32,000 nucleotides of DNA from Candidatus Saganbacteria bacterium (GCA_026387835.1 JAPLKZ010000010.1:146379-178378); one strand, 5' to 3'; shown: positions 1-8,472, counted from the first letter of the stretch. The notes: generated by a model not told the origin, from the letters alone. Numbers and translations: made by a program.

Positions 1-300
1 GTCTTTGATCTTGATCTCCGCACCGAGCTCTTTAAGTATGTAATACAGTATCAGCCTTGCTCCCGCCTCGTCCGCGCTCCGCCCAGATATTTTATCCTTG
101 TCTCCTGCCAGCAGTATCGCGCAGGCTTTTTCATAGTCCATCTTTCTCAGCTCTTCGGCGGGGATCTTTGTCCTGATCTGCCTTAAAAGTATTTTGTACG
201 CTTGGATCTCCTGCTGGGTAAAAAGCGGCTTGCCCTGCTCTGTGCTGCCGGTTGCTGCCGGAGCTTGTGAATTATTAACCGCAGCTGCCTGCTGTGCCAT
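1..300 (-). CDS. hypothetical protein, N-terminal ~100 codons only (continues past window edge)
   Basis: ATG at 300-298 (minus). AGGAG (307-311, minus) lies 6 nt upstream, 12 nt after the stop of the 848-aa gene. My translation MAQQAAAVNNSQAPAATGSTEQGKPLFTQQEIQAYKILLRQIRTKIPAEELRKMDYEKACAILLAGDKDK... stays open to position 1. It is absent from the ORF track because it has no in-window stop. No family recognised. Confidence 0.55.
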   Translation of the reverse strand, partial: MAQQAAAVNNSQAPAATGSTEQGKPLFTQQEIQAYKILLRQIRTKIPAEELRKMDYEKACAILLAGDKDKISGRSADEAGARLILYYILKELGAEIKIKD

Positions 301-312
301 TTTCAGCTCCTA

Positions 313-2859
313 TCAGTCGACGTTTACTCCGAGCTTTGCAGCATATTTCTTTCCTGGATCTGTGAGCTGACCTCTCTTGGCTATTTCTTGAAGTATTGCT
401 CTATAATCACTTAATGTTTTGTCTTCGCTCTTTAATTCTTCAAGGACCGCCGTTGCGGACGACTCGGCATTTTCATCAGTTAATTGATCTGTTGTTATTT
501 TAACGAACTTATTTCTTTTAATTACTAGCATTTTTGCAAATGTTGTCCCGCTCTCATCTTTCAGCATCTTGTCGGCAATTGCCTTAGAACCTTTATCTCC
601 TTCTTTAGCAGCTCCTGCTTGTGGAGCACCCGCACCTGCAGCGGGTGGCATCACTACGGCCGGACCTGTTGCCGGTTTCTGTTGCGTGCCACTTTTTGCC
701 ACATCACTGGCTGTTTTCTTATTTTTGTTTGCTCTTTCCAGCAATACCTTTGGCGGCAATTTTTGCGTGAAATCAAATGCCGAATATCCCCTTACTCCTT
801 CAGCCTCATCTTTTGCGGAATATTCTTTCACTTTTTCAGCCATCCATTCTTTCACCATCTTGTCCTTTTCATATTCGCTGACAGTTATATATCTTGGGGC
901 AGGGCTTTCAAATGTTGCTTCAACTATCATTTTGTCATCGGCAGACAGGCTCTTTTTCTCGGCTGTCTTTGTTACTTTATACAGATAACCTCCGTTTGTG
1001 CCATGCAACTCAAACTTTACATTTTCAGATGAAACCGATTGCTGCTTGAATATTTCCCCAAGCAACTGTCTTGGCGTTGAATCATCCTCTATGCATTTCC
1101 CGCTCGCATTTACAATAAAGTATCTTTCGCCCTGTTTTATGATTGTTTTTTTAGGGGCCTTCTCCATTCTTTCCCCCGTATCACTCAGGGTCTCAGCGTT
1201 ATATTCTTCAAGGACAACTTCAACCGTCTCCCTCTCATATTTCCCCTTCTTGATTCTTTCGTCAACTTTTGCTTCCGAGAACCTTTCGCTGTCAATAGCA
1301 TATAATTTCCCAAATACATCGACGGGCTTTGTCCTGTCATCGCTCGGACTGATCAGTCCCTCTTTTACCGTTATCTGGCTCTCAATAAATTTGTTATTTA
1401 TTAACTTCTTTATCAGATCCGGCAAGCTGCAAGTGCTGTTGTCCGCACTATAAGTTTGTCCGTTTAATTTGGAAATATTACTGTTTGTTTTTATTTCGCC
1501 TTCAGTACGGGTCGCGATCTGTTTTGCCGCATCTCCTTCCATTTCATATCCAAACGCTCTGACTTCTCCCGCCTTCTTGCTTTCTTTCCCTTTATCGTCC
1601 TTCTTTTGTATTTCAACCTTTTTATCCAATACTTTTTTGAGCCACGCTTGTAAACTTTTCCCCGCTTCAGGCCCCACATCTTCTGTCTTCAGCACCGGCA
1701 GCTCATCACTTTTCTTGATACCAAAATAACCTTCGATGAACTTGCTGTCGAGGTCTTTGCCAAAATATGACGCGAACACAAAACCTTTGAGGACAGATTG
1801 TTTTTGTTTAATATCGGCTAGATCGCTATAACTCTTTGCAGTGGTGTAATATGTCCGCGCAATAGGATCGAGCATGCTTCCAAGTCCTGCTGTTGAAACA
1901 TTTGATGTTGTTCCAAATGCCCAGCTTCTGATCGCATCGGCATTGTTTATTTGGGCAAGCGTTAAACTCCCGATAGTATCATGGCATTTTTTTATTGCGG
2001 CCACATCTGCCACAGTAAGCTCCCTGAAGGTCACCCCGGATTCGTTCCACTGCTTTGCGGTCGAAAGATATAATTCGCTCATATTGCCGGACGTTCTTCC
2101 GGACATATTAACGAACCATTGCACCCTTGCCCAGAATATCTGGAGTTCGTCCAGGGTGATTATTCCGTCAGCATTTCCGCCATTAAGGTTTACCATATCG
2201 ATAAGCCTGCCTAAGTCTGCATTTTTGAATTCTATTCCAAGATTTTTTAGATCGGCTATTTTTATTCCTTTAGAAATATCTAAGTCCTGCTTCTGTTTAT
2301 TTCCGTTGATAATGATTTCGATCTTACCACCGTTCACTTTCAATTCGGTTTTAGTTATGGTTTTCCCTAGTAATTTAGGCTTTGTTGTAGTAAACTCGGC
2401 TCCATTTCCTTTTTTCGTACCACCAATCGTTTCAAATAATTTGATCAACGCTTCATCCGTGCTAAGTGTGCTGTTGGCCGCAGTTAATGGCTTTGGTTCT
2501 GCAATGGGTTTATCGGCCGGTTTCGGTCCTGATTTCGGTGCCGGTACTGGTTTGGGGTTCTCCGTTGTTGACGTAGGTGTTGCTACAGGGTTTGGTGTTG
2601 GACCAGATATTTGAACCTCACCATTAACTACTTTAATTGGCACTCCTTTTTTTATTGCTTCTTCAATACCTCTATTGATCTCCGCTTGGCTGAATGTTTT
2701 ATTGTTATCAGTATCTTTAATGAATGCTCTTGCTCTTTCCAAAACACTTGGAATAGCTTTGAGCTCTTTGTTGCCTTTTACATCTACAATATTTTGTTGA
2801 TCCACTTTTAGTTTCGCTTTTGCACCACCGACTGTTATTTCAAAATCTATACTTGCCAT
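313..2859 (-). CDS. large orphan protein (848 aa) with EF-hand-like loops and a Pro-rich linker; no signal peptide
   Basis: Track ORF 313..2859. SD-like AAGGGGGAG lies upstream of the ATG at 2859. Pro-rich linker GPTPNPVATPTSTTENPKPVPAPKSGPKPADKPIAEPKP. EF-like loops DTDNNKTFSQAE and GGNADGIITLDE. The N-terminal ~185 aa resemble those of the 601-aa neighbour. No family recognised. Confidence 0.8.
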   Translation of the reverse strand: MASIDFEITVGGAKAKLKVDQQNIVDVKGNKELKAIPSVLERARAFIKDTDNNKTFSQAEINRGIEEAIKKGVPIKVVNGEVQISGPTPNPVATPTSTTENPKPVPAPKSGPKPADKPIAEPKPLTAANSTLSTDEALIKLFETIGGTKKGNGAEFTTTKPKLLGKTITKTELKVNGGKIEIIINGNKQKQDLDISKGIKIADLKNLGIEFKNADLGRLIDMVNLNGGNADGIITLDELQIFWARVQWFVNMSGRTSGNMSELYLSTAKQWNESGVTFRELTVADVAAIKKCHDTIGSLTLAQINNADAIRSWAFGTTSNVSTAGLGSMLDPIARTYYTTAKSYSDLADIKQKQSVLKGFVFASYFGKDLDSKFIEGYFGIKKSDELPVLKTEDVGPEAGKSLQAWLKKVLDKKVEIQKKDDKGKESKKAGEVRAFGYEMEGDAAKQIATRTEGEIKTNSNISKLNGQTYSADNSTCSLPDLIKKLINNKFIESQITVKEGLISPSDDRTKPVDVFGKLYAIDSERFSEAKVDERIKKGKYERETVEVVLEEYNAETLSDTGERMEKAPKKTIIKQGERYFIVNASGKCIEDDSTPRQLLGEIFKQQSVSSENVKFELHGTNGGYLYKVTKTAEKKSLSADDKMIVEATFESPAPRYITVSEYEKDKMVKEWMAEKVKEYSAKDEAEGVRGYSAFDFTQKLPPKVLLERANKNKKTASDVAKSGTQQKPATGPAVVMPPAAGAGAPQAGAAKEGDKGSKAIADKMLKDESGTTFAKMLVIKRNKFVKITTDQLTDENAESSATAVLEELKSEDKTLSDYRAILQEIAKRGQLTDPGKKYAAKLGVNVD
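2146..2181 (-). other. EF-hand-like 12-residue loop GGNADGIITLDE in the 848-aa protein
   Basis: RC of 2146-2181 reads GGCGGAAATGCTGACGGAATAATCACCCTGGACGAA. It matches EF-hand positions 3(N), 5(D), 6(G), 8(I) and 12(E). Position 1 is G rather than D. Confidence 0.4.
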
Positions 2860-2918
2860 TTTACTCTCCCCCTTTCGTATTTCCTGATCTGTATTTGTTC
2901 ATTTTTATAACCTTTCTC

Positions 2919-3401
2919 CTAGTTCATATTCAGCTCGTACTCAATCTCCATTTCCTGCGAATCGGAAAGCCCTAAGCCTGAATCCACATATTCTGAGCCG
3001 TAAGCCGTAAGCTGTAAGCCGTAAGCATTTGAGGAATCATGTATCCTCACGGTATTTGTCATATCCATGCCTTTGTTTAGATCCAAAGCATAAAGCTCAT
3101 AATTTAAAACGGAATTCATTGTTTTCATCTCTGAGCTCAAAATACTGCCAAAACTCTTTTGAATGCTGCATCTTGGATCCAGGATTTCCCCGCCTCCAGC
3201 GGGTCCATCCCCCTCTATGTATATATCGTCAATTTTTGGCTCAAATCCCATGGTTTCTTTAATGCAAAACTTGCCGTTATGCTGGCTTTTTATCTCGCGC
3301 TCCAGTATATGCTCAAAATCGCTGTAACTCGGCTCTCCTGCCCTTGCCGGGGTATTTTCCCGCTTTAAGTCTTCTTCCTCGTGTCCGATGTTTTCGCACA
3401 T
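2919..3401 (-). CDS. small acidic orphan protein (160 aa)
   Basis: Track ORF 2919..3515, but the internal ATG at 3401 has the SD GAAAGAGGTG 5-7 nt upstream, and a strong predicted promoter (3425-3452) lies inside the longer ORF. Product MCENIGHEEEDLKRENTPARAGEPSYSDFEHILERE... is Asp/Glu-rich. No family recognised. Confidence 0.65.
   Translation of the reverse strand: MCENIGHEEEDLKRENTPARAGEPSYSDFEHILEREIKSQHNGKFCIKETMGFEPKIDDIYIEGDGPAGGGEILDPRCSIQKSFGSILSSEMKTMNSVLNYELYALDLNKGMDMTNTVRIHDSSNAYGLQLTAYGSEYVDSGLGLSDSQEMEIEYELNMN
2994..3026. repeat. tandem heptanucleotide repeat TAAGC[CT]G, about 4.5 copies, inside the 160-aa CDS
   Basis: Plus strand reads tgagccg taagccg taagctg taagccg taagc. 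It encodes AYGLQLTAYGSE on the minus strand. Confidence 0.8.
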
Positions 3402-3424
3402 ATTACACCTCTTTCCTATGGCCC

Positions 3425-3452
3425 ATTTTAGACAGCTGCCTGCAGCTGTTAA
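3425..3452 (-). promoter_or_regulatory. sigma70-type promoter TTAACA-16-TAAAAT for the 160-aa/848-aa operon, overlapped by an 18-bp palindrome
   Basis: The minus strand reads TTAACA GCTGCAGGCAGCTGTC TAAAAT, with the -10 about 24 nt upstream of the ATG at 3401. Palindrome ACAGCTGC-CT-GCAGCTGT (3432-3449) spans the -35 and the spacer. Confidence 0.45.
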
Positions 3453-3605
3453 GAAGCACATTAGAAGGGGTGACAAGCCTGTTGTTGATTGCCACCCCAT
3501 GTAATATGCTTCCACTCAACTTTGTCATATTGTTCATTGAATTCCGCCCCCTGCTTGTCCCGCGAAGCTGCGGAGCATGGCGACGGAGCGAAGCGGGATA
3601 AAAGG

Positions 3606-3651
3606 CCATAAAAATACCGGAGCCCCCAAATAAAACATCTGAGGGTCCGGT
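3606..3651 (-). terminator. candidate intrinsic terminator (imperfect hairpin plus ATTTTTAT) inside the long spacer
   Basis: The minus strand reads ACCGGACCCTCA GATGTTTTATT TGGGGGCTCCGGT followed by ATTTTTAT. The stem is about 11 bp with one bulge and one mismatch. Confidence 0.35.
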
Positions 3652-3775
3652 TATACAAAAAAAAAAAAAAAATAATTCAAGTCCAACAGGCAAGTCCTTG
3701 ATCATTTTCTTTCCTTATACAAAAATATCGAATCCAACAGGCCTGCCTGCAGCAGGCAGGCAAACCTTCGATAAC
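3651..3775. repeat. two ~55-62 bp direct-repeat units (TTATACAAAAA...TCCAACAGGC...CCTT[GC]GAT) in intergenic DNA
   Basis: Unit 1 starts at 3651 and contains an A16 run (3657-3672). Unit 2 starts at 3715 and contains the perfect palindrome GCCTGCCTGC-A-GCAGGCAGGC (3741-3761). The shared block TCCAACAGGC occurs at 3682-3691 and 3733-3742. Confidence 0.7.
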
Positions 3776-3864
3776 TGACGCTCTTTGACGTTCTATATTT
3801 CTATCGGGTTTTGGGGGTCCAAACTTGCATGGGAAAAGGGGGTTGCGGTCCGCGGTTCGTAGTC

Positions 3865-3902
3865 AGCGGATGGCAGCTGTTTTGACCCGCCTGCCATCCG
3901 CT
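3865..3902 (-). other. 12-bp perfect hairpin just downstream of the 601-aa stop (3-prime stabiliser or atypical terminator)
   Basis: AGCGGATGGCAG (3865-3876) pairs with CTGCCATCCGCT (3891-3902) around a 14-nt loop. It begins 17 nt after the stop codon. No U-run follows on the minus strand. Confidence 0.4.
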
Positions 3903-3918
3903 CGGCTATAAACTGTGC

Positions 3919-5724
3919 TTATTTTGCCGTATCTATATCGATCCGGTTTGATATATCGAATTCGTCGTTATTTATAAGGTAAATCGTGTATTTTTTACCC
4001 GGTTCCAGTTTCGAAACACCTATTGTCCCGTCTTTATCATTCACGTTTACGACTGTGGTATTTACAACGGCGTTGTCCGTCACTATCTTAACGCTATATT
4101 TGGCCCTCTCTTTGGGAGCCGCGAAATTGATCACGGCAGAATCTCTGGTGATCTTATTTTTAAGATACCCCAAAGTACCGGTCCTATTCGTGATAGCGCC
4201 GGCAGGAATAACGACCGGGCTTGCTTCCGGTTTTGGCGCCGGAGGGGGAGCATTTTTTTTTGCCAGGGCCGCAGCTTGTTCCGCCTTTTTCCTGGTATCC
4301 GCTATTTTCGCTTCATCTTTCGCTTTTTTTGCGGCATCCGCTGCTTTTTGCGCCAGGAGCGCAGCTTGTTCCGCCTTCTTTTTGTCAGCAATTTTTTTTG
4401 CCGCATCCGCTGCTTTTTTTGCCGCATCCTCCGCTATTTTTGCGGCATCGTTTGCTTTAATTCTCTCTGAAATAATCTTTATGCCGCCTTCCGCAGCGTT
4501 CTTTTCCTCTTCCGTAGTCAGATACCCGGATCTAGCGAGCTCTACGACCAAAGGCAGGATCTTTTTATCCTTGTTCTCGTCGAGTTCCTCGGAATTCAGG
4601 ACCGCTTCCAGCTTCTTATTATTTGCATCAAGCTTTGCCTGTATTTGAGCCGCTTTTGTTAATTCCGACTGGGCTACCTGTTCTTTTTTGCCGGTTTCAT
4701 TCAGATCTTTATTTAGTTTTTCAAATATCTCCGATATACATCCCATAATATTTGGCGCAAACCTTTTTGCGTTTTCATAAGGCATTCTGGTACTTTCAAA
4801 CCATTTGGATTTTAGTTCATAGAACCTTGCATTTAATACCTGATCTGCCTGTTTCTGGATATCATCACTTATCCTTTTCACGTTCGCGATAACTTCCTTT
4901 TTAAGACCAACAAGCTCCTGGATATTTTTAGCAGCGTGCACTTTTTCTGATATTCCGGTGACAAATGCTTTCATAAGATCCGCCTTGTCCGGCCAACATT
5001 TTGTGAGGTCTACATAAACCGATAGCTTCGCAATTAAGTCCCTTTTTGCCGTCTCAAGAAGTTTTGCGTTTGATGCGGCATTTTCGGCTTTTACCTGCTC
5101 GAGATTTATTTCCGCTTTTTCTGCCTTGTCTGAGGCAGCATTTGCCGCATCTTCAAAAAGCCTCGTTTCATCATACCGGTTGATGATTATTTCAAGTTTT
5201 TTTCCGTCTTCTGTCACGCGACATACTCTGTTTAATCTTTCAATGGTTACCTGCGGATCTTTTTTATTCTTTTCCGATTCTTCAACGATCCATTCCATAA
5301 AACTCGGACAATGTACGCTCCGGCCTTTTAATATTACGTCGGTGGCCGGCCTTCCGGAAGATGTCAGATAAGGCATTAATTCCGACAACTGCAATTTCCC
5401 GTCTCCGTTTCGGTCCGGCACCCTTAGCGTTCTACTGATAAATATTTGAGGCACCTTTTCGCCATTTTCGCCATTTGACCTGATAATTACATTTGTCGAT
5501 TTTTTGATGGTTACCTGCGGATCTTTTTGGGTCATTTCCGGTTGTTCAACGGTACAGTCTGTAATGCCCAGCTTAACCTTATGACTTTTTAATATCAAAT
5601 CAATAACCGGCCTGTCGCAAGGAGACTTCAGATCGGGCATTATTTCCCGCAATTGTATTTTCCCGTCTTTGTTTAGATCCGGCACCGATAGTCCTCTACT
5701 GATAGTAACCTCTATGTCTGCCAT
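3919..5724 (-). CDS. large orphan protein (601 aa): two N-terminal EF-hand-loop modules, coiled-coil and Ala/Lys repeat region, C-terminal beta-rich (FN3-like) module; no signal peptide
   Basis: Track ORF. SD CAGGAGG lies 8 nt upstream of the ATG at 5724. Canonical loops DLNKDGKIQLRE and DRNGDGKLQLSE. Repeats of the type AAKKAADAAKKIADKKKAEQAALLAQK. C-terminal LEPGKKYTIYLINND. Confidence 0.85.
   Translation of the reverse strand: MADIEVTISRGLSVPDLNKDGKIQLREIMPDLKSPCDRPVIDLILKSHKVKLGITDCTVEQPEMTQKDPQVTIKKSTNVIIRSNGENGEKVPQIFISRTLRVPDRNGDGKLQLSELMPYLTSSGRPATDVILKGRSVHCPSFMEWIVEESEKNKKDPQVTIERLNRVCRVTEDGKKLEIIINRYDETRLFEDAANAASDKAEKAEINLEQVKAENAASNAKLLETAKRDLIAKLSVYVDLTKCWPDKADLMKAFVTGISEKVHAAKNIQELVGLKKEVIANVKRISDDIQKQADQVLNARFYELKSKWFESTRMPYENAKRFAPNIMGCISEIFEKLNKDLNETGKKEQVAQSELTKAAQIQAKLDANNKKLEAVLNSEELDENKDKKILPLVVELARSGYLTTEEEKNAAEGGIKIISERIKANDAAKIAEDAAKKAADAAKKIADKKKAEQAALLAQKAADAAKKAKDEAKIADTRKKAEQAAALAKKNAPPPAPKPEASPVVIPAGAITNRTGTLGYLKNKITRDSAVINFAAPKERAKYSVKIVTDNAVVNTTVVNVNDKDGTIGVSKLEPGKKYTIYLINNDEFDISNRIDIDTAK
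4261..4460. repeat. internal coding repeat (90-bp period) encoding Ala/Lys-rich helical repeats
   Basis: A 27-mer at 4261-4287 recurs at 4351-4377 with 3 mismatches (core gcagcttgttccgcctt is identical). Motif gc[cg]gcatcc..gct recurs near 4331, 4400, 4421 and 4442. Confidence 0.75.
5380..5415 (-). other. canonical EF-hand Ca2+-binding loop 2 (DRNGDGKLQLSE)
   Basis: RC reads GACCGAAACGGAGACGGGAAATTGCAGTTGTCGGAA. The consensus is the same as loop 1, and the loop lies 88 residues after it within a duplicated module. Confidence 0.6.
5644..5679 (-). other. canonical EF-hand Ca2+-binding loop 1 (DLNKDGKIQLRE)
   Basis: RC reads GATCTAAACAAAGACGGGAAAATACAATTGCGGGAA. It fits D-x-N-x-D-G-x-I-x-x-x-E at every liganding position. 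Confidence 0.6.
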
Positions 5725-5760
5725 TAAAAAATACCTCCTGTAACAGTAAATACCCCTCTA

Positions 5761-5788
5761 ATTATCTATCGTCGGTTTTGTATGCGAA
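5761..5788 (-). promoter_or_regulatory. possible promoter TTCGCA-16-GATAAT for the 601-aa gene
   Basis: The minus strand reads TTCGCA TACAAAACCGACGATA GATAAT, about 37 nt upstream of the ATG at 5724. The match is weak to moderate. Confidence 0.3.
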
Positions 5789-5957: not shown

Positions 5958-7501
5958 CGGTTTCCCCTCTTTTTCCAGGCGGTCCTGACAAGTAATGCCA
6001 GCCCGATGAAAAGCGCGACAAGCCCGGCCCTTGTCCATAGGACATATGGCACGTTCGCGGGACTTATATCCTTCATTGTCATCACAGAGATCCCCTGCTG
6101 GAACAGCCATGATGTTAGGATCGCGATAAGGAACAGCGGGGTGACATATTTTATGATCCATTTATAAATTTTCGGGATCTGCAGCTGCGCGCCGTGATGT
6201 ATCTCGTCCCAGGCTTTATCTATCCCGAATACCCACGCGAACAGCACCGCCTCGATAGTGCCGAACAGGACAAGGCAGAACGTGCCTCCCCAAAAATCCA
6301 GTTCGTCGACCACTCCGTTCCCCAAAAAGAATATCGCCGGCTGGCAGAGAAGGAATGAGGTCACGGATACGATGAGCGCGGCTTTTTTCCTGTCAAAGCC
6401 GAAATCATCTTTGACAAATGCGACCGCGGGCTCGATAAGCGATACGGATGATGTTATCCCCGCAAGGAAAAGCAAGCTAAACCATAGGAAAGCAAAGAAC
6501 GCGCCGAGCGATATTTTTGAAAAGATTAAAGGCATAGTCACAAACCCGAGATTATAGGCCCCGCTGGAAGCGATGTCCTTTACGCCTGCCGGACCGAAGA
6601 ACATAAAAGCGAGCGGAATGACTATGCTCCCACCGAGTATCACCTCGGCAAATTCGTTCGTCGCCGCCGCGGAAAGCCCCGACAGCGCGACATCGTCCCC
6701 CCTTTTCAGGTAGCTCGCGTAGGTCAGGATCACGCCTATTCCCACGCTCAAAGTGAAAAAGATCTGTCCCGCGGCCGCAAGCCAGGTCTTCGCGTTAAGC
6801 AGGGCGCTGAAATCCGGGTTCCACAAATACCCGAGCCCGTTGATGACGTTAAGTTCCGGATGCGACATGTCTGGAGCGCCGAGCGTCAGGACCCTGACAA
6901 CGATCACTATCGCCGCGATAAAAAGGGCCGGCATCGCTATCTTGCAAAGAAGCTCGATACCTTTTGAGACGCCGCGGTAAATGATCCACATGTTGATGGC
7001 AAAGGTCATTAAAAAGAAAATATATGCGTCTTTTATTCCGCAAAAATATTGGTTTGACGCGAGCCCCTGATAGCCGGACAAGAACTGCGCCATGTGGGCC
7101 TTATCGTGGATGGATGTAAGTACTCCGGTCAGCGAATAGAACGCGTACCCAAGCAGCCAGGACTCTATATAAGTGTAATAAATAAAGATCACGAGCGGTC
7201 CGAATATCCCTATCACGCCAAAATATTTGACGAAGCGGTTTTCCCACAGCCGGTTAAACATCCCCGGCGCCGTCGAATGGCCATGGACCCCGCCGAAACG
7301 GCCTATCGCCCACTCTATCCACATCAGGGGGATCCCCAGCAGTACCAGCGAGATAAAATACGGGATCATGAACGCGCCGCCGCCGTTGTTTGCCGCCTGT
7401 ACCGGGAACCTTAAAAAGTTCCCAAGGCCGACCACTGAACCCGCGACAGCCATTATTATGCCGATCTTTGATCCCCATGCGTCTTTTTTTGTCTCCGCCA
7501 T
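5954..7501 (-). CDS. sodium-dependent transporter, neurotransmitter:sodium symporter (NSS/SNF) family
   Basis: 515 aa and polytopic. The N-terminal signature GSKIGIIMAVAGSVVGLGNFLRFPVQAANNGGGAFMIPYFI...GIPLMWIEWAIGRFGG is typical of LeuT-like NSS proteins. Confidence 0.9.
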   Translation of the reverse strand: MAETKKDAWGSKIGIIMAVAGSVVGLGNFLRFPVQAANNGGGAFMIPYFISLVLLGIPLMWIEWAIGRFGGVHGHSTAPGMFNRLWENRFVKYFGVIGIFGPLVIFIYYTYIESWLLGYAFYSLTGVLTSIHDKAHMAQFLSGYQGLASNQYFCGIKDAYIFFLMTFAINMWIIYRGVSKGIELLCKIAMPALFIAAIVIVVRVLTLGAPDMSHPELNVINGLGYLWNPDFSALLNAKTWLAAAGQIFFTLSVGIGVILTYASYLKRGDDVALSGLSAAATNEFAEVILGGSIVIPLAFMFFGPAGVKDIASSGAYNLGFVTMPLIFSKISLGAFFAFLWFSLLFLAGITSSVSLIEPAVAFVKDDFGFDRKKAALIVSVTSFLLCQPAIFFLGNGVVDELDFWGGTFCLVLFGTIEAVLFAWVFGIDKAWDEIHHGAQLQIPKIYKWIIKYVTPLFLIAILTSWLFQQGISVMTMKDISPANVPYVLWTRAGLVALFIGLALLVRTAWKKRGNR

Positions 7502-7509
7502 TTGTAAAT

Positions 7510-7538
7510 ATGTTAAATGGAAAAAACGCCCGGGTCAA
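7510..7538 (-). promoter_or_regulatory. promoter TTGACC-17-TAACAT for the NSS gene; -10 ends 8 nt before the ATG (leaderless)
   Basis: The minus strand reads TTGACC CGGGCGTTTTTTCCATT TAACAT ATTTACAA ATG. There is no SD. Confidence 0.5.
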
Positions 7539-7581
7539 GATGCCTGCCGGCCCGCCATCCGATATGCTAAAATATTTTCCA

Positions 7582-8472
7582 ATGGATATTCCGCAGTTCC
7601 CCGGCTTTAAGCCCCTTAAAAAAGAAGACAAGCCCGTCTTTGAAGAGTATTATTCCAAAAGGCCCCTGGAGATGTCCGATTATACTTTCACGAATTTCTT
7701 CATCTGGCGCCTTGCGGATAACACAGAGCTCACGCTCGTGAACGGCAATCTTTGCGCTTATGTCACCGCCCCCGACAGAAAACGCTATTTCATGATGCCG
7801 CTCGGGGAGAACAAAATGGAAGACACGCTTATGAAATGCCTTTCAACGGGGACTGCCGTGATAAGAACCAATAAATATTTTGTTGACAGATACATAAGGA
7901 AAAATCCCGCTTTCAAGGCGGAGGAAGACCGCGACAATTTTGACTACATATATTTGGCAAAAGACCTTATGGAGCTTAAAGGGAAAAAATACGACGGCAA
8001 AAGGAACCATATCAACAGTTTTCTGAAATCCGGTTCTTTTGAATATGAAGACATGGACAGCGTCCATATCGGGGAATGCATCGCGCTTAACGAAAAATGG
8101 TGCCTCGGGAAAAAAAGAGAATCGGAAGAGTTCCCGAATATCGAGTGTGAAGGAGCGGTCGTAAAAGAAGCCCTGCTCAACTTCAAATTCCTCGGTCTGA
8201 AGGGAGGGGTCATAAAGATCAACGGCAGGATAAAGGCTTTCAGCCTCGGGGAGAGGCTGAACGATGACACGGCCGCTATTCACATAGAAAAAGCAGACCC
8301 GGCCATCAGGGGATTGTCGCAATTGATAAACAGGGAATTCGCACGGAACGCGTGGAGTTCCTTTACATTTATAAACCGCGAGCAGGACATGGGGCACGCG
8401 GGGCTTCGCAAGGCCAAGCTCAGTTATCACCCTGTGAAGATGGTAAGCAAGTTCAATATTACCCTGATGTGA
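7582..8472 (+). CDS. DUF2156-like protein (stand-alone homolog of the MprF C-terminal aminoacyl-PG synthase/GNAT-fold domain)
   Basis: The start FPGFKPLKKEDKPVFEEYYSKRPLEMSDYTFTNFFIWR is typical of DUF2156. Start chosen at 7582 because TGCTAAAAT (7565-7573, extended -10) lies 8 nt upstream. Alternative in-frame ATGs at 7564, 7540 and 7510 cannot be excluded. The track ORF start at 7390 overlaps the NSS gene. Confidence 0.7.
   Translation: MDIPQFPGFKPLKKEDKPVFEEYYSKRPLEMSDYTFTNFFIWRLADNTELTLVNGNLCAYVTAPDRKRYFMMPLGENKMEDTLMKCLSTGTAVIRTNKYFVDRYIRKNPAFKAEEDRDNFDYIYLAKDLMELKGKKYDGKRNHINSFLKSGSFEYEDMDSVHIGECIALNEKWCLGKKRESEEFPNIECEGAVVKEALLNFKFLGLKGGVIKINGRIKAFSLGERLNDDTAAIHIEKADPAIRGLSQLINREFARNAWSSFTFINREQDMGHAGLRKAKLSYHPVKMVSKFNITLM

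Follow-up and report, generated by a model that had tools for sequence, protein, structure and literature searches.

Ca2+-binding loops of the Dx[DN]xDG type are found with near-identical Ca2+ binding in at least 12 unrelated contexts, strand-loop-helix arrangements among them, and a grafted loop of this type suffices to create a Ca2+ site; inside cells, only EF-hands and calcium blades are common among these contexts (PMC3123361). The term EF-hand-like denotes a loop of 12 residues that is not flanked by helices on both sides, and the so-called loop-F pattern is exemplified by type I dockerin, domain 1 of anthrax protective antigen and the CHAP domain of LysGH15 (PMC4022735). Here, we describe two EF-hand-type loops in an orphan protein of 601 residues, encoded in a stretch of 32,000 nucleotides from Candidatus Saganbacteria bacterium (GCA_026387835.1, JAPLKZ010000010.1:146379-178378; the whole stretch is referred to as the window). 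The reading that we favor, and to which we give roughly even credence, is that each of two tandem modules at the N-terminus of this protein holds one EF-hand-like Ca2+ site of the loop-F type, which would order the head of a rod-like and probably cytoplasmic protein. The elements on which this reading is built are the following.

3919..5724 (stop codon included), minus strand: gene for the 601-residue orphan protein (P0001), from the open reading frame (ORF) list and translation
5734..5739, minus strand: Shine-Dalgarno sequence AGGAGG, 9 nt upstream of the ATG (5724-5722), read directly from the sequence
5461..5724, minus strand: module 1 (residues 1-88), in order a leading strand-like segment, loop, putative short helix, RPxxDxILK, KDPQVTI and two strand-like segments, from alignments
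5197..5460, minus strand: module 2 (residues 89-176), a tandem copy of module 1, with 44% amino-acid and 63% nucleotide identity
5167..5196, minus strand: leading segment repeated a third time in part, as KLEIIINRYD (residues 177-186), not followed by a loop; the alignment places KLEIIINRYD under QIFISR
5644..5679, minus strand: EF-hand-type loop 1, DLNKDGKIQLRE (residues 16-27), between conserved P15 and P30, from computed coordinates and a Pfam match
5380..5415, minus strand: EF-hand-type loop 2, DRNGDGKLQLSE (residues 104-115), between conserved P103 and P118, from computed coordinates and a Pfam match

An earlier note on this DNA had described a minus-strand protein of 601 residues that opens with a tandem duplication of about 88 residues, each copy carrying a complete EF-hand loop and ending on KDPQVTI, and this description is borne out. 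The gene is real and native, since its codon usage lies at the genome median in the gene frame (log-likelihood of +0.34 bits per codon; median for long ORFs of the genome, 0.32) and is negative in the five other frames. Local alignment of residues 1-90 with residues 89-185 gives a score of 150 (BLOSUM62), while 2000 shuffles gave a mean of 27.2 (standard deviation 5.1, maximum 63) and none of them reached 150. The significant duplication extends over residues ∼4-90 and ∼92-176, and the 44% identity of the two modules was obtained over ∼94 residues aligned by MAFFT, with the loop block as their best-conserved portion. KDPQVTI stands near the end of both modules (KDPQVTIKK, residues 67-75; KDPQVTIER, residues 155-163), is followed in each by the two strand-like segments and coincides with a run of 22 identical nucleotides.

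The duplication looks fairly young because, in addition to this run, 33 of the 42 residues that are identical between the modules are also encoded by the same codon, and differences affect no more than 3 of 15 four-fold sites. Nevertheless, 56% of module residues have changed between the copies, often by two or three nucleotides per codon, and nucleotide identity is 0.64, 0.69 and 0.57 at the first, second and third codon position, respectively. Judged from the sequences, these differences suggest either that amino-acid divergence was rapid once the modules had recently duplicated, with a nonsynonymous rate (dN) near or above the synonymous rate (dS), or that gene conversion was patchy. Throughout positions 5380-5724, covering sequence of modules 1 and 2, codons are mostly either identical or changed at two to three positions, and synonymous sites at conserved residues are mostly unchanged.

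Both loops lie exactly at the coordinates that had been claimed for them, and the claim that every liganding position is filled holds as well: each loop, together with the residue that follows it, matches PROSITE pattern PS00018, which tests for oxygen ligands at loop positions 1, 3, 5 and 12, Gly at position 6 and a hydrophobic residue at position 8, and also matches the stricter pattern D.[DN].[DN]G.[ILV]...E. Among all six-frame ORFs of at least 100 residues in the whole 1.5-Mb genome (830,000 residues), PS00018 has seven matches, two of them in the 601-residue protein, and the strict pattern has three, namely these two and one in a 585-residue EF-hand protein. The two loops are a single event copied by duplication rather than two independent matches, so that the relevant question is one of retention. 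In both copies, all six consensus positions are intact, as are the hydrophobic residue that follows E12 and the prolines that bracket the loop (VP-loop-[IL]MP).

The 585-residue protein is encoded on the minus strand of contig C10 of the same genome (reverse-strand offsets 6681-8448) and is without a signal peptide. It has four EF-hand-type loops (DTNHDGVINASE, DANGDMKISKDE, DVDGDGKISMSD and DTNSDGVIDFAT), and its EF-hand_1 score of 50.7 bits is above the Pfam EF-hand thresholds, whereas its dockerin match is weak. By these profile scores, at least one protein of the organism is a bona fide EF-hand protein.

Against the whole 601-residue protein, Pfam EF-hand_5 scores 23.3 bits (E 4e-5; cut-off 25.9), and EF-hand_6, EF-hand_1 and EF-hand_7 score less. 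Module 1 alone reaches 13.2 bits with EF-hand_5 (profile positions 9-21) and module 2 alone 15.0 bits with EF-hand_5 and 14.9 bits with EF-hand_6. The Pfam EF-hand alignments start at profile position 8-12, that is from the loop onward, and reach position 21-30; the entering helix is never aligned. No adjacent pair as in canonical EF-hands was found: each 88-residue module has one loop, with no second loop in it, and alignments cover single hands, EF-hand_7, which models a pair, being matched at positions 12-39 of 67 only. A HMMER search with residues 1-190 among 1.84 billion representative proteins returned 25 proteins at E up to 1e-3, the query included. One of its top matches (P0003), a low-complexity repeat protein without relation to EF-hands, was judged spurious; apart from this protein and the query, the hits examined were multi-EF-hand proteins, aligned on their loops and ∼10-15 residues on either side. 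Likewise, hhalign of the two-module profile with EF-hand-pair units cut from these hits gave 91% probability over 30 columns, corresponding to one hand and not to a pair. The hits, including the units used in hhalign, were chosen for their likeness to the query, and their flank matches are therefore biased. In the PDB, the best sequence match is calmodulin (2lhh, E 0.62).

On the flanks, the proline at position -1 is kept in both copies and occurs in only 1 of the 435 loops (0.2%) found in the EF-hand proteins retrieved, while proline at position +15, found in 11% of these loops, would be expected to end or kink the exiting helix. The segments ahead of the loops have a helical hydrophobic moment of 0.39-0.48 and a strand moment of 0.29-0.37, Chou-Fasman propensities favor strand, and the measures are ambiguous when taken together. 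The earlier note had called the flanks beta-strand-like rather than helix-loop-helix. This stands, indirectly, for the entering side, where Pfam aligns from the loop onward only, where Pro -1 is kept and for which no partner loop is found, but it gets no clear answer from the propensities. All in all, the sequences favor a loop followed by an exiting helix and speak against an entering helix of the canonical kind.

AlphaFold2 gave a predicted local distance difference test score (pLDDT) of 41.2 for residues 1-200 as a single sequence and of 44.8 when module 2 was modeled with module 1 as the sole other alignment row. Both models place a helix from about loop position 10 (residues 25-28 and 113-119) and the second model places a strand at loop positions 7-9, an arrangement like that found locally in an EF-hand, but in each case at a pLDDT of 52-60 only. 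The segments ahead of the loops form strands in the first model and lack a regular helix in the second; both models are too low in confidence to count as evidence. A Foldseek search of the PDB with either model found nothing at E below 1.

The protein has no detectable relatives. A word-indexed search of a collection of 5.8 billion clusters, carried out with the whole protein, with residues 170-425 and with residues 495-601, retrieved no homologue but only the protein itself, on one contig. Six-frame searches of its own genome and of 40 relatives found no homologue, nor did scans of metagenome and genome contigs, and a profile of the two modules gave no match in a six-frame search of 145 other genomes of the phylum.

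We propose a lineage-specific, elongated protein in which a head of two ∼88-residue modules would be followed by a helix-rich rod of ∼300 residues, a basic Ala/Lys-rich end, a proline linker and a small immunoglobulin (Ig)/Fn3-like beta domain. Each head module would carry one EF-hand-like Ca2+ site, made up of a canonical 12-residue Dx[DN]xDG...E loop and a short exiting helix, without a canonical entering helix or a nearby partner loop. Each loop is predicted to coordinate a single Ca2+, with side-chain ligands from D1, N3 and D5, the main-chain carbonyl of position 7, a water molecule held by Q9 and E12 as a bidentate ligand. Binding could order and stiffen an otherwise weakly structured head, and the stiffened head might in turn stabilize or gate whatever it binds or assembles with.

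Several observations weigh against such a Ca2+ site. The liganding geometry is one that we infer, as the AlphaFold2 models are unusable, and every Pfam EF-hand score stays below its gathering threshold, the whole protein reaching 23.3 bits where 25.9 are required and single modules 13-15 bits. Neither the sequence collections nor the relatives, the phylum or the contig scans provide a homologue in which conservation of the loops could be seen. We estimate that, without selection, the six loop positions would be kept in both copies with a probability of roughly 0.01-0.05, which is only moderately improbable; because the duplication is fairly young, their retention is only moderate evidence of constraint. 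From amino-acid frequencies, about 0.3 chance loops of the strict consensus are expected per genome of this size by our estimate, and given the very many windows scanned, single chance motifs are expected. Moreover, neither a signal peptide nor a transmembrane segment was found in the protein (maximum 19-residue Kyte-Doolittle mean, 0.72), which suggests a location in the cytoplasm, where free Ca2+ is sub-micromolar and where isolated loops of low affinity would be empty.

The most serious alternative, which we regard as possible though rather doubtful, is that the loops bind no Ca2+ to a meaningful extent and go back to a chance DxNxDG turn in a fast-evolving orphan, recently duplicated and so far undecayed, which would serve at most as a structural turn. 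PS00018 is known for false positives, and its other matches in the genome, those of the EF-hand protein excepted, appear to be chance ones. The youth of the duplication, the near-equal identity at the three codon positions, indicating weak purifying selection on the modules overall, the sub-threshold Pfam scores and the lack of a homologue with a conserved motif all fit this explanation. It has to account, however, for the joint survival of all six positions of the consensus, of the hydrophobic residue at position 13 and of both prolines while 56% of the other positions changed, and for a strict consensus that has no false positive elsewhere in the genome; furthermore, full-consensus loops bind Ca2+ even in foreign scaffolds (PMC3123361). 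The near-equal identity across codon positions could also be read, together with the occurrence of this singleton ORF on a single contig, as a DNA duplication in non-coding or decayed sequence, the ORF not being protein-coding at all. To this we give hardly any credence, in view of an open frame of 612 codons in DNA of 45% G+C, a perfect AGGAGG at 9 nt, median codon usage in the gene frame only and a domain-like architecture that runs 400 residues past the repeat. Differences between the copies, moreover, cluster by codon: 33 codons have no change where 24 are expected, and 32 have two changes where again 24 are expected.

It is also unlikely, in our judgment, that the loops belong to canonical helix-loop-helix EF-hands spaced 88 residues apart, which would form pairs either within one chain or, by way of the rod, with hands of another chain, in an ordinary four-helix domain with the remainder of each module as an insert. 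EF-hands almost always act in pairs. In addition, HMMER and hhalign alignments reach ∼10 residues upstream of the loop, where I/F, I, L and V of FISRTLRV fall on the hydrophobic positions of an E helix (YLSRLFQIG), and continue through '..L..SG' past the F helix; the helical moment of the pre-loop segments is also slightly above their strand moment. The hits so aligned were, however, picked out of 1.8 billion proteins because they resemble the query, whereas the unbiased Pfam profiles never align the E helix. Canonical hands hardly ever have a Pro at -1, the presumed helix of module 1 additionally contains a Gly at its middle, strand is favored by Chou-Fasman propensities, the low-confidence AlphaFold2 models have strand or no regular structure at this place, and a spacing of 88 residues would be very unusual for paired hands. 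A loop-F-type site in each module remains the reading that we prefer.

A more far-reaching version of the latter, which we consider improbable, is that the ∼88-residue module represents an undescribed and probably intracellular Ca2+-binding domain, composed of a strand, a proline-bracketed EF-type loop and a short helix on a small beta sheet, with its two copies forming a Ca2+-switched head on a rod-like scaffold of a lineage-specific variable locus, together with an 848-residue orphan and a giant protein of ∼4,700 residues. If true, such a domain would constitute a new structural context for Dx[DN]xDG, one of very few inside cells, in a phylum, Margulisiibacteriota, without studied Ca2+ biology.

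The remaining features of the gene and its product are listed below.

5761..5788, minus strand: weak sigma-70-like promoter match, TTCGCA-16-GATAAT, from a consensus scan (9/12 matches)
3865..3902, minus strand: perfect 12-bp GC-rich hairpin without a U tract, 17 nt past the stop codon, read directly from the sequence
4249..5166, minus strand: putative helix-rich middle region (residues 187-492), from few Pro/Gly, a heptad-like pattern and composition
4249-4464, minus strand: Ala/Lys-rich stretch closing the middle region (residues 421-492), with 39% Ala, 25% Lys and a net charge of +9
4216..4248, minus strand: proline-rich linker PPPAPKPEASP (residues 493-503), from the translation and Pro positions
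3922..4215, minus strand: putative C-terminal beta-rich domain (residues 504-601) with sub-threshold fibronectin type III likeness, from Pfam fn3

The promoter match is weak evidence, as the count of sigma-70-like sites in the region is not above that in shuffles. The hairpin was not called in a terminator scan because it lacks a T run; it may mark the end of the transcript, ahead of a spacer of 517 bp. On its minus strand, this spacer beyond the hairpin contains a T16 run (about 3655-3670). Within the protein, the sole family match of the Ala/Lys-rich stretch is a compositional one to TolA in NCBIfam, at 19 bits against a cut-off of 213. The C-terminal domain scores 19.9 bits with Pfam fn3 when taken alone (E 8.5e-4) and 15.8 bits in the whole protein, both below the cut-off of 25, and its match to fibronectin in the PDB is at E 0.054.

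The window also encodes FtsZ, with 81% identity to FtsZ of metagenome-assembled genomes of Candidatus Margulisiibacteriota. The NSS transporter adjacent to the 601-residue gene's block is kept in relatives at 73-80% identity, with unrelated genes beside it; in one of them (G005, C11:14000-32500), an orphan ORF of 2,472 residues lies next to the transporter and bears no likeness to this block. Positions 1-5724 of the window, which were compared with loci L090 (in G005), L091 and L092, hold orphans of 601, 160 and 848 residues as well as a giant gene whose length exceeds 4,700 codons, and BLASTP among these and the 2,472-residue ORF detected no mutual similarity. Since relatives that keep the NSS transporter carry unrelated neighbors, the locus is, as far as sequence comparison goes, a variable region with fast-evolving large orphans, and synteny therefore yields no comparative information.

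Two other origins were considered and rejected. The neighboring 848-residue protein was tried as a paralogue sharing the N-terminal architecture, but BLASTP gave nothing better than E 0.2, Pfam gave no EF-hand match in it, and hhalign of the two proteins reached a probability of 2.3% and covered only KLEIIIN/KIEIIIN, so that paralogy is not detectable. A phage or defense origin found no support, as PHROGs had no match for the 601-residue protein and NCBIfam only the compositional one to TolA.

Similar strand-like N-termini are seen in the 601-residue protein (MADIEVTIS, 5713-5724), the 848-residue protein (MASIDFEITV, 2848-2859) and the 585-residue EF-hand protein (MAAIQNPVTIT). All three proteins lack an export signal and have EF-type loops or loop-like motifs, the 848-residue protein being without a Pfam EF-hand match. 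MAxI as a common N-terminal signal was rejected, as it is not enriched genome-wide (7 of 1174 starts, one of the seven ribosomal-protein-like), and the likeness of the three N-termini may be a coincidence.

Compared with canonical EF-hands (PF00036, PF13202, PF13405, PF13499; PS00018), such as those of calmodulin, the modules share the 12-residue loop with D1, N3, D5, G6, I/L8 and E12, a hydrophobic residue at position 13 and a predicted short helix from about position 10, and all database similarity of the modules is to loops of this kind. They differ in their sub-threshold Pfam scores, the unmatched entering helix, Pro -1, a Pro at +15 that would shorten the exiting helix and the absence of a partner hand 30-40 residues away, while the rest of the 88-residue module is without likeness to EF-hand domains. 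Type I dockerin likewise has a loop-helix unit duplicated in tandem, but with repeats of ∼22 residues in a domain of roughly 70 residues, as opposed to a spacing of 88 residues, and typically with Asp at position 12, where both loops have Glu. Pfam Dockerin_1 (PF00404) is not listed for the 601-residue protein even at E up to 10, and with no signal peptide either, the protein does not qualify as a dockerin. Excalibur (PF05901) is a bacterial Ca2+-binding motif that also has a DxDxDG core; its loop is shorter, contains a conserved Cys (DxDxDGxxCE) and is extracellular, whereas neither loop described here contains a Cys or has a Pfam match to Excalibur. Outside the loops, residues 421-492 resemble TolA domain II and other Ala-Lys-rich helical spacers in composition, although the TolA score is far below its cut-off and the protein lacks an N-terminal membrane anchor, and the C-terminal ∼100 residues show a weak fn3 pattern with a sub-threshold score.

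Closest are the EF-hand-like Dx[DN]xDG loops in the classification of Rigden and Galperin (PMC3123361), with which the modules share a full 12-residue loop and a predicted single clear flanking helix. The non-EF contexts in that classification are nearly all extracellular, unlike this protein without a signal peptide, which is homologous to none of the listed families. Should the loops bind Ca2+ in the cell outside a helix-loop-helix, they would add one more, unusually placed context for the convergently evolved Dx[DN]xDG motif and provide a first point of entry to proteins that respond to Ca2+ in an uncultivated lineage sister to the Cyanobacteria. Even then, a non-canonical context would be a variant of a known theme, as such contexts are already well documented (PMC3123361); the value of this single-genome orphan is that of a candidate for a simple binding assay, and current understanding is left unchanged. 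The loops of the 601-residue protein most likely work like those of the EF-hand-like class, and by their sequence they would represent a variant, confined to one genome, of a type of Ca2+ loop that is already known, with Ca2+ binding predicted.

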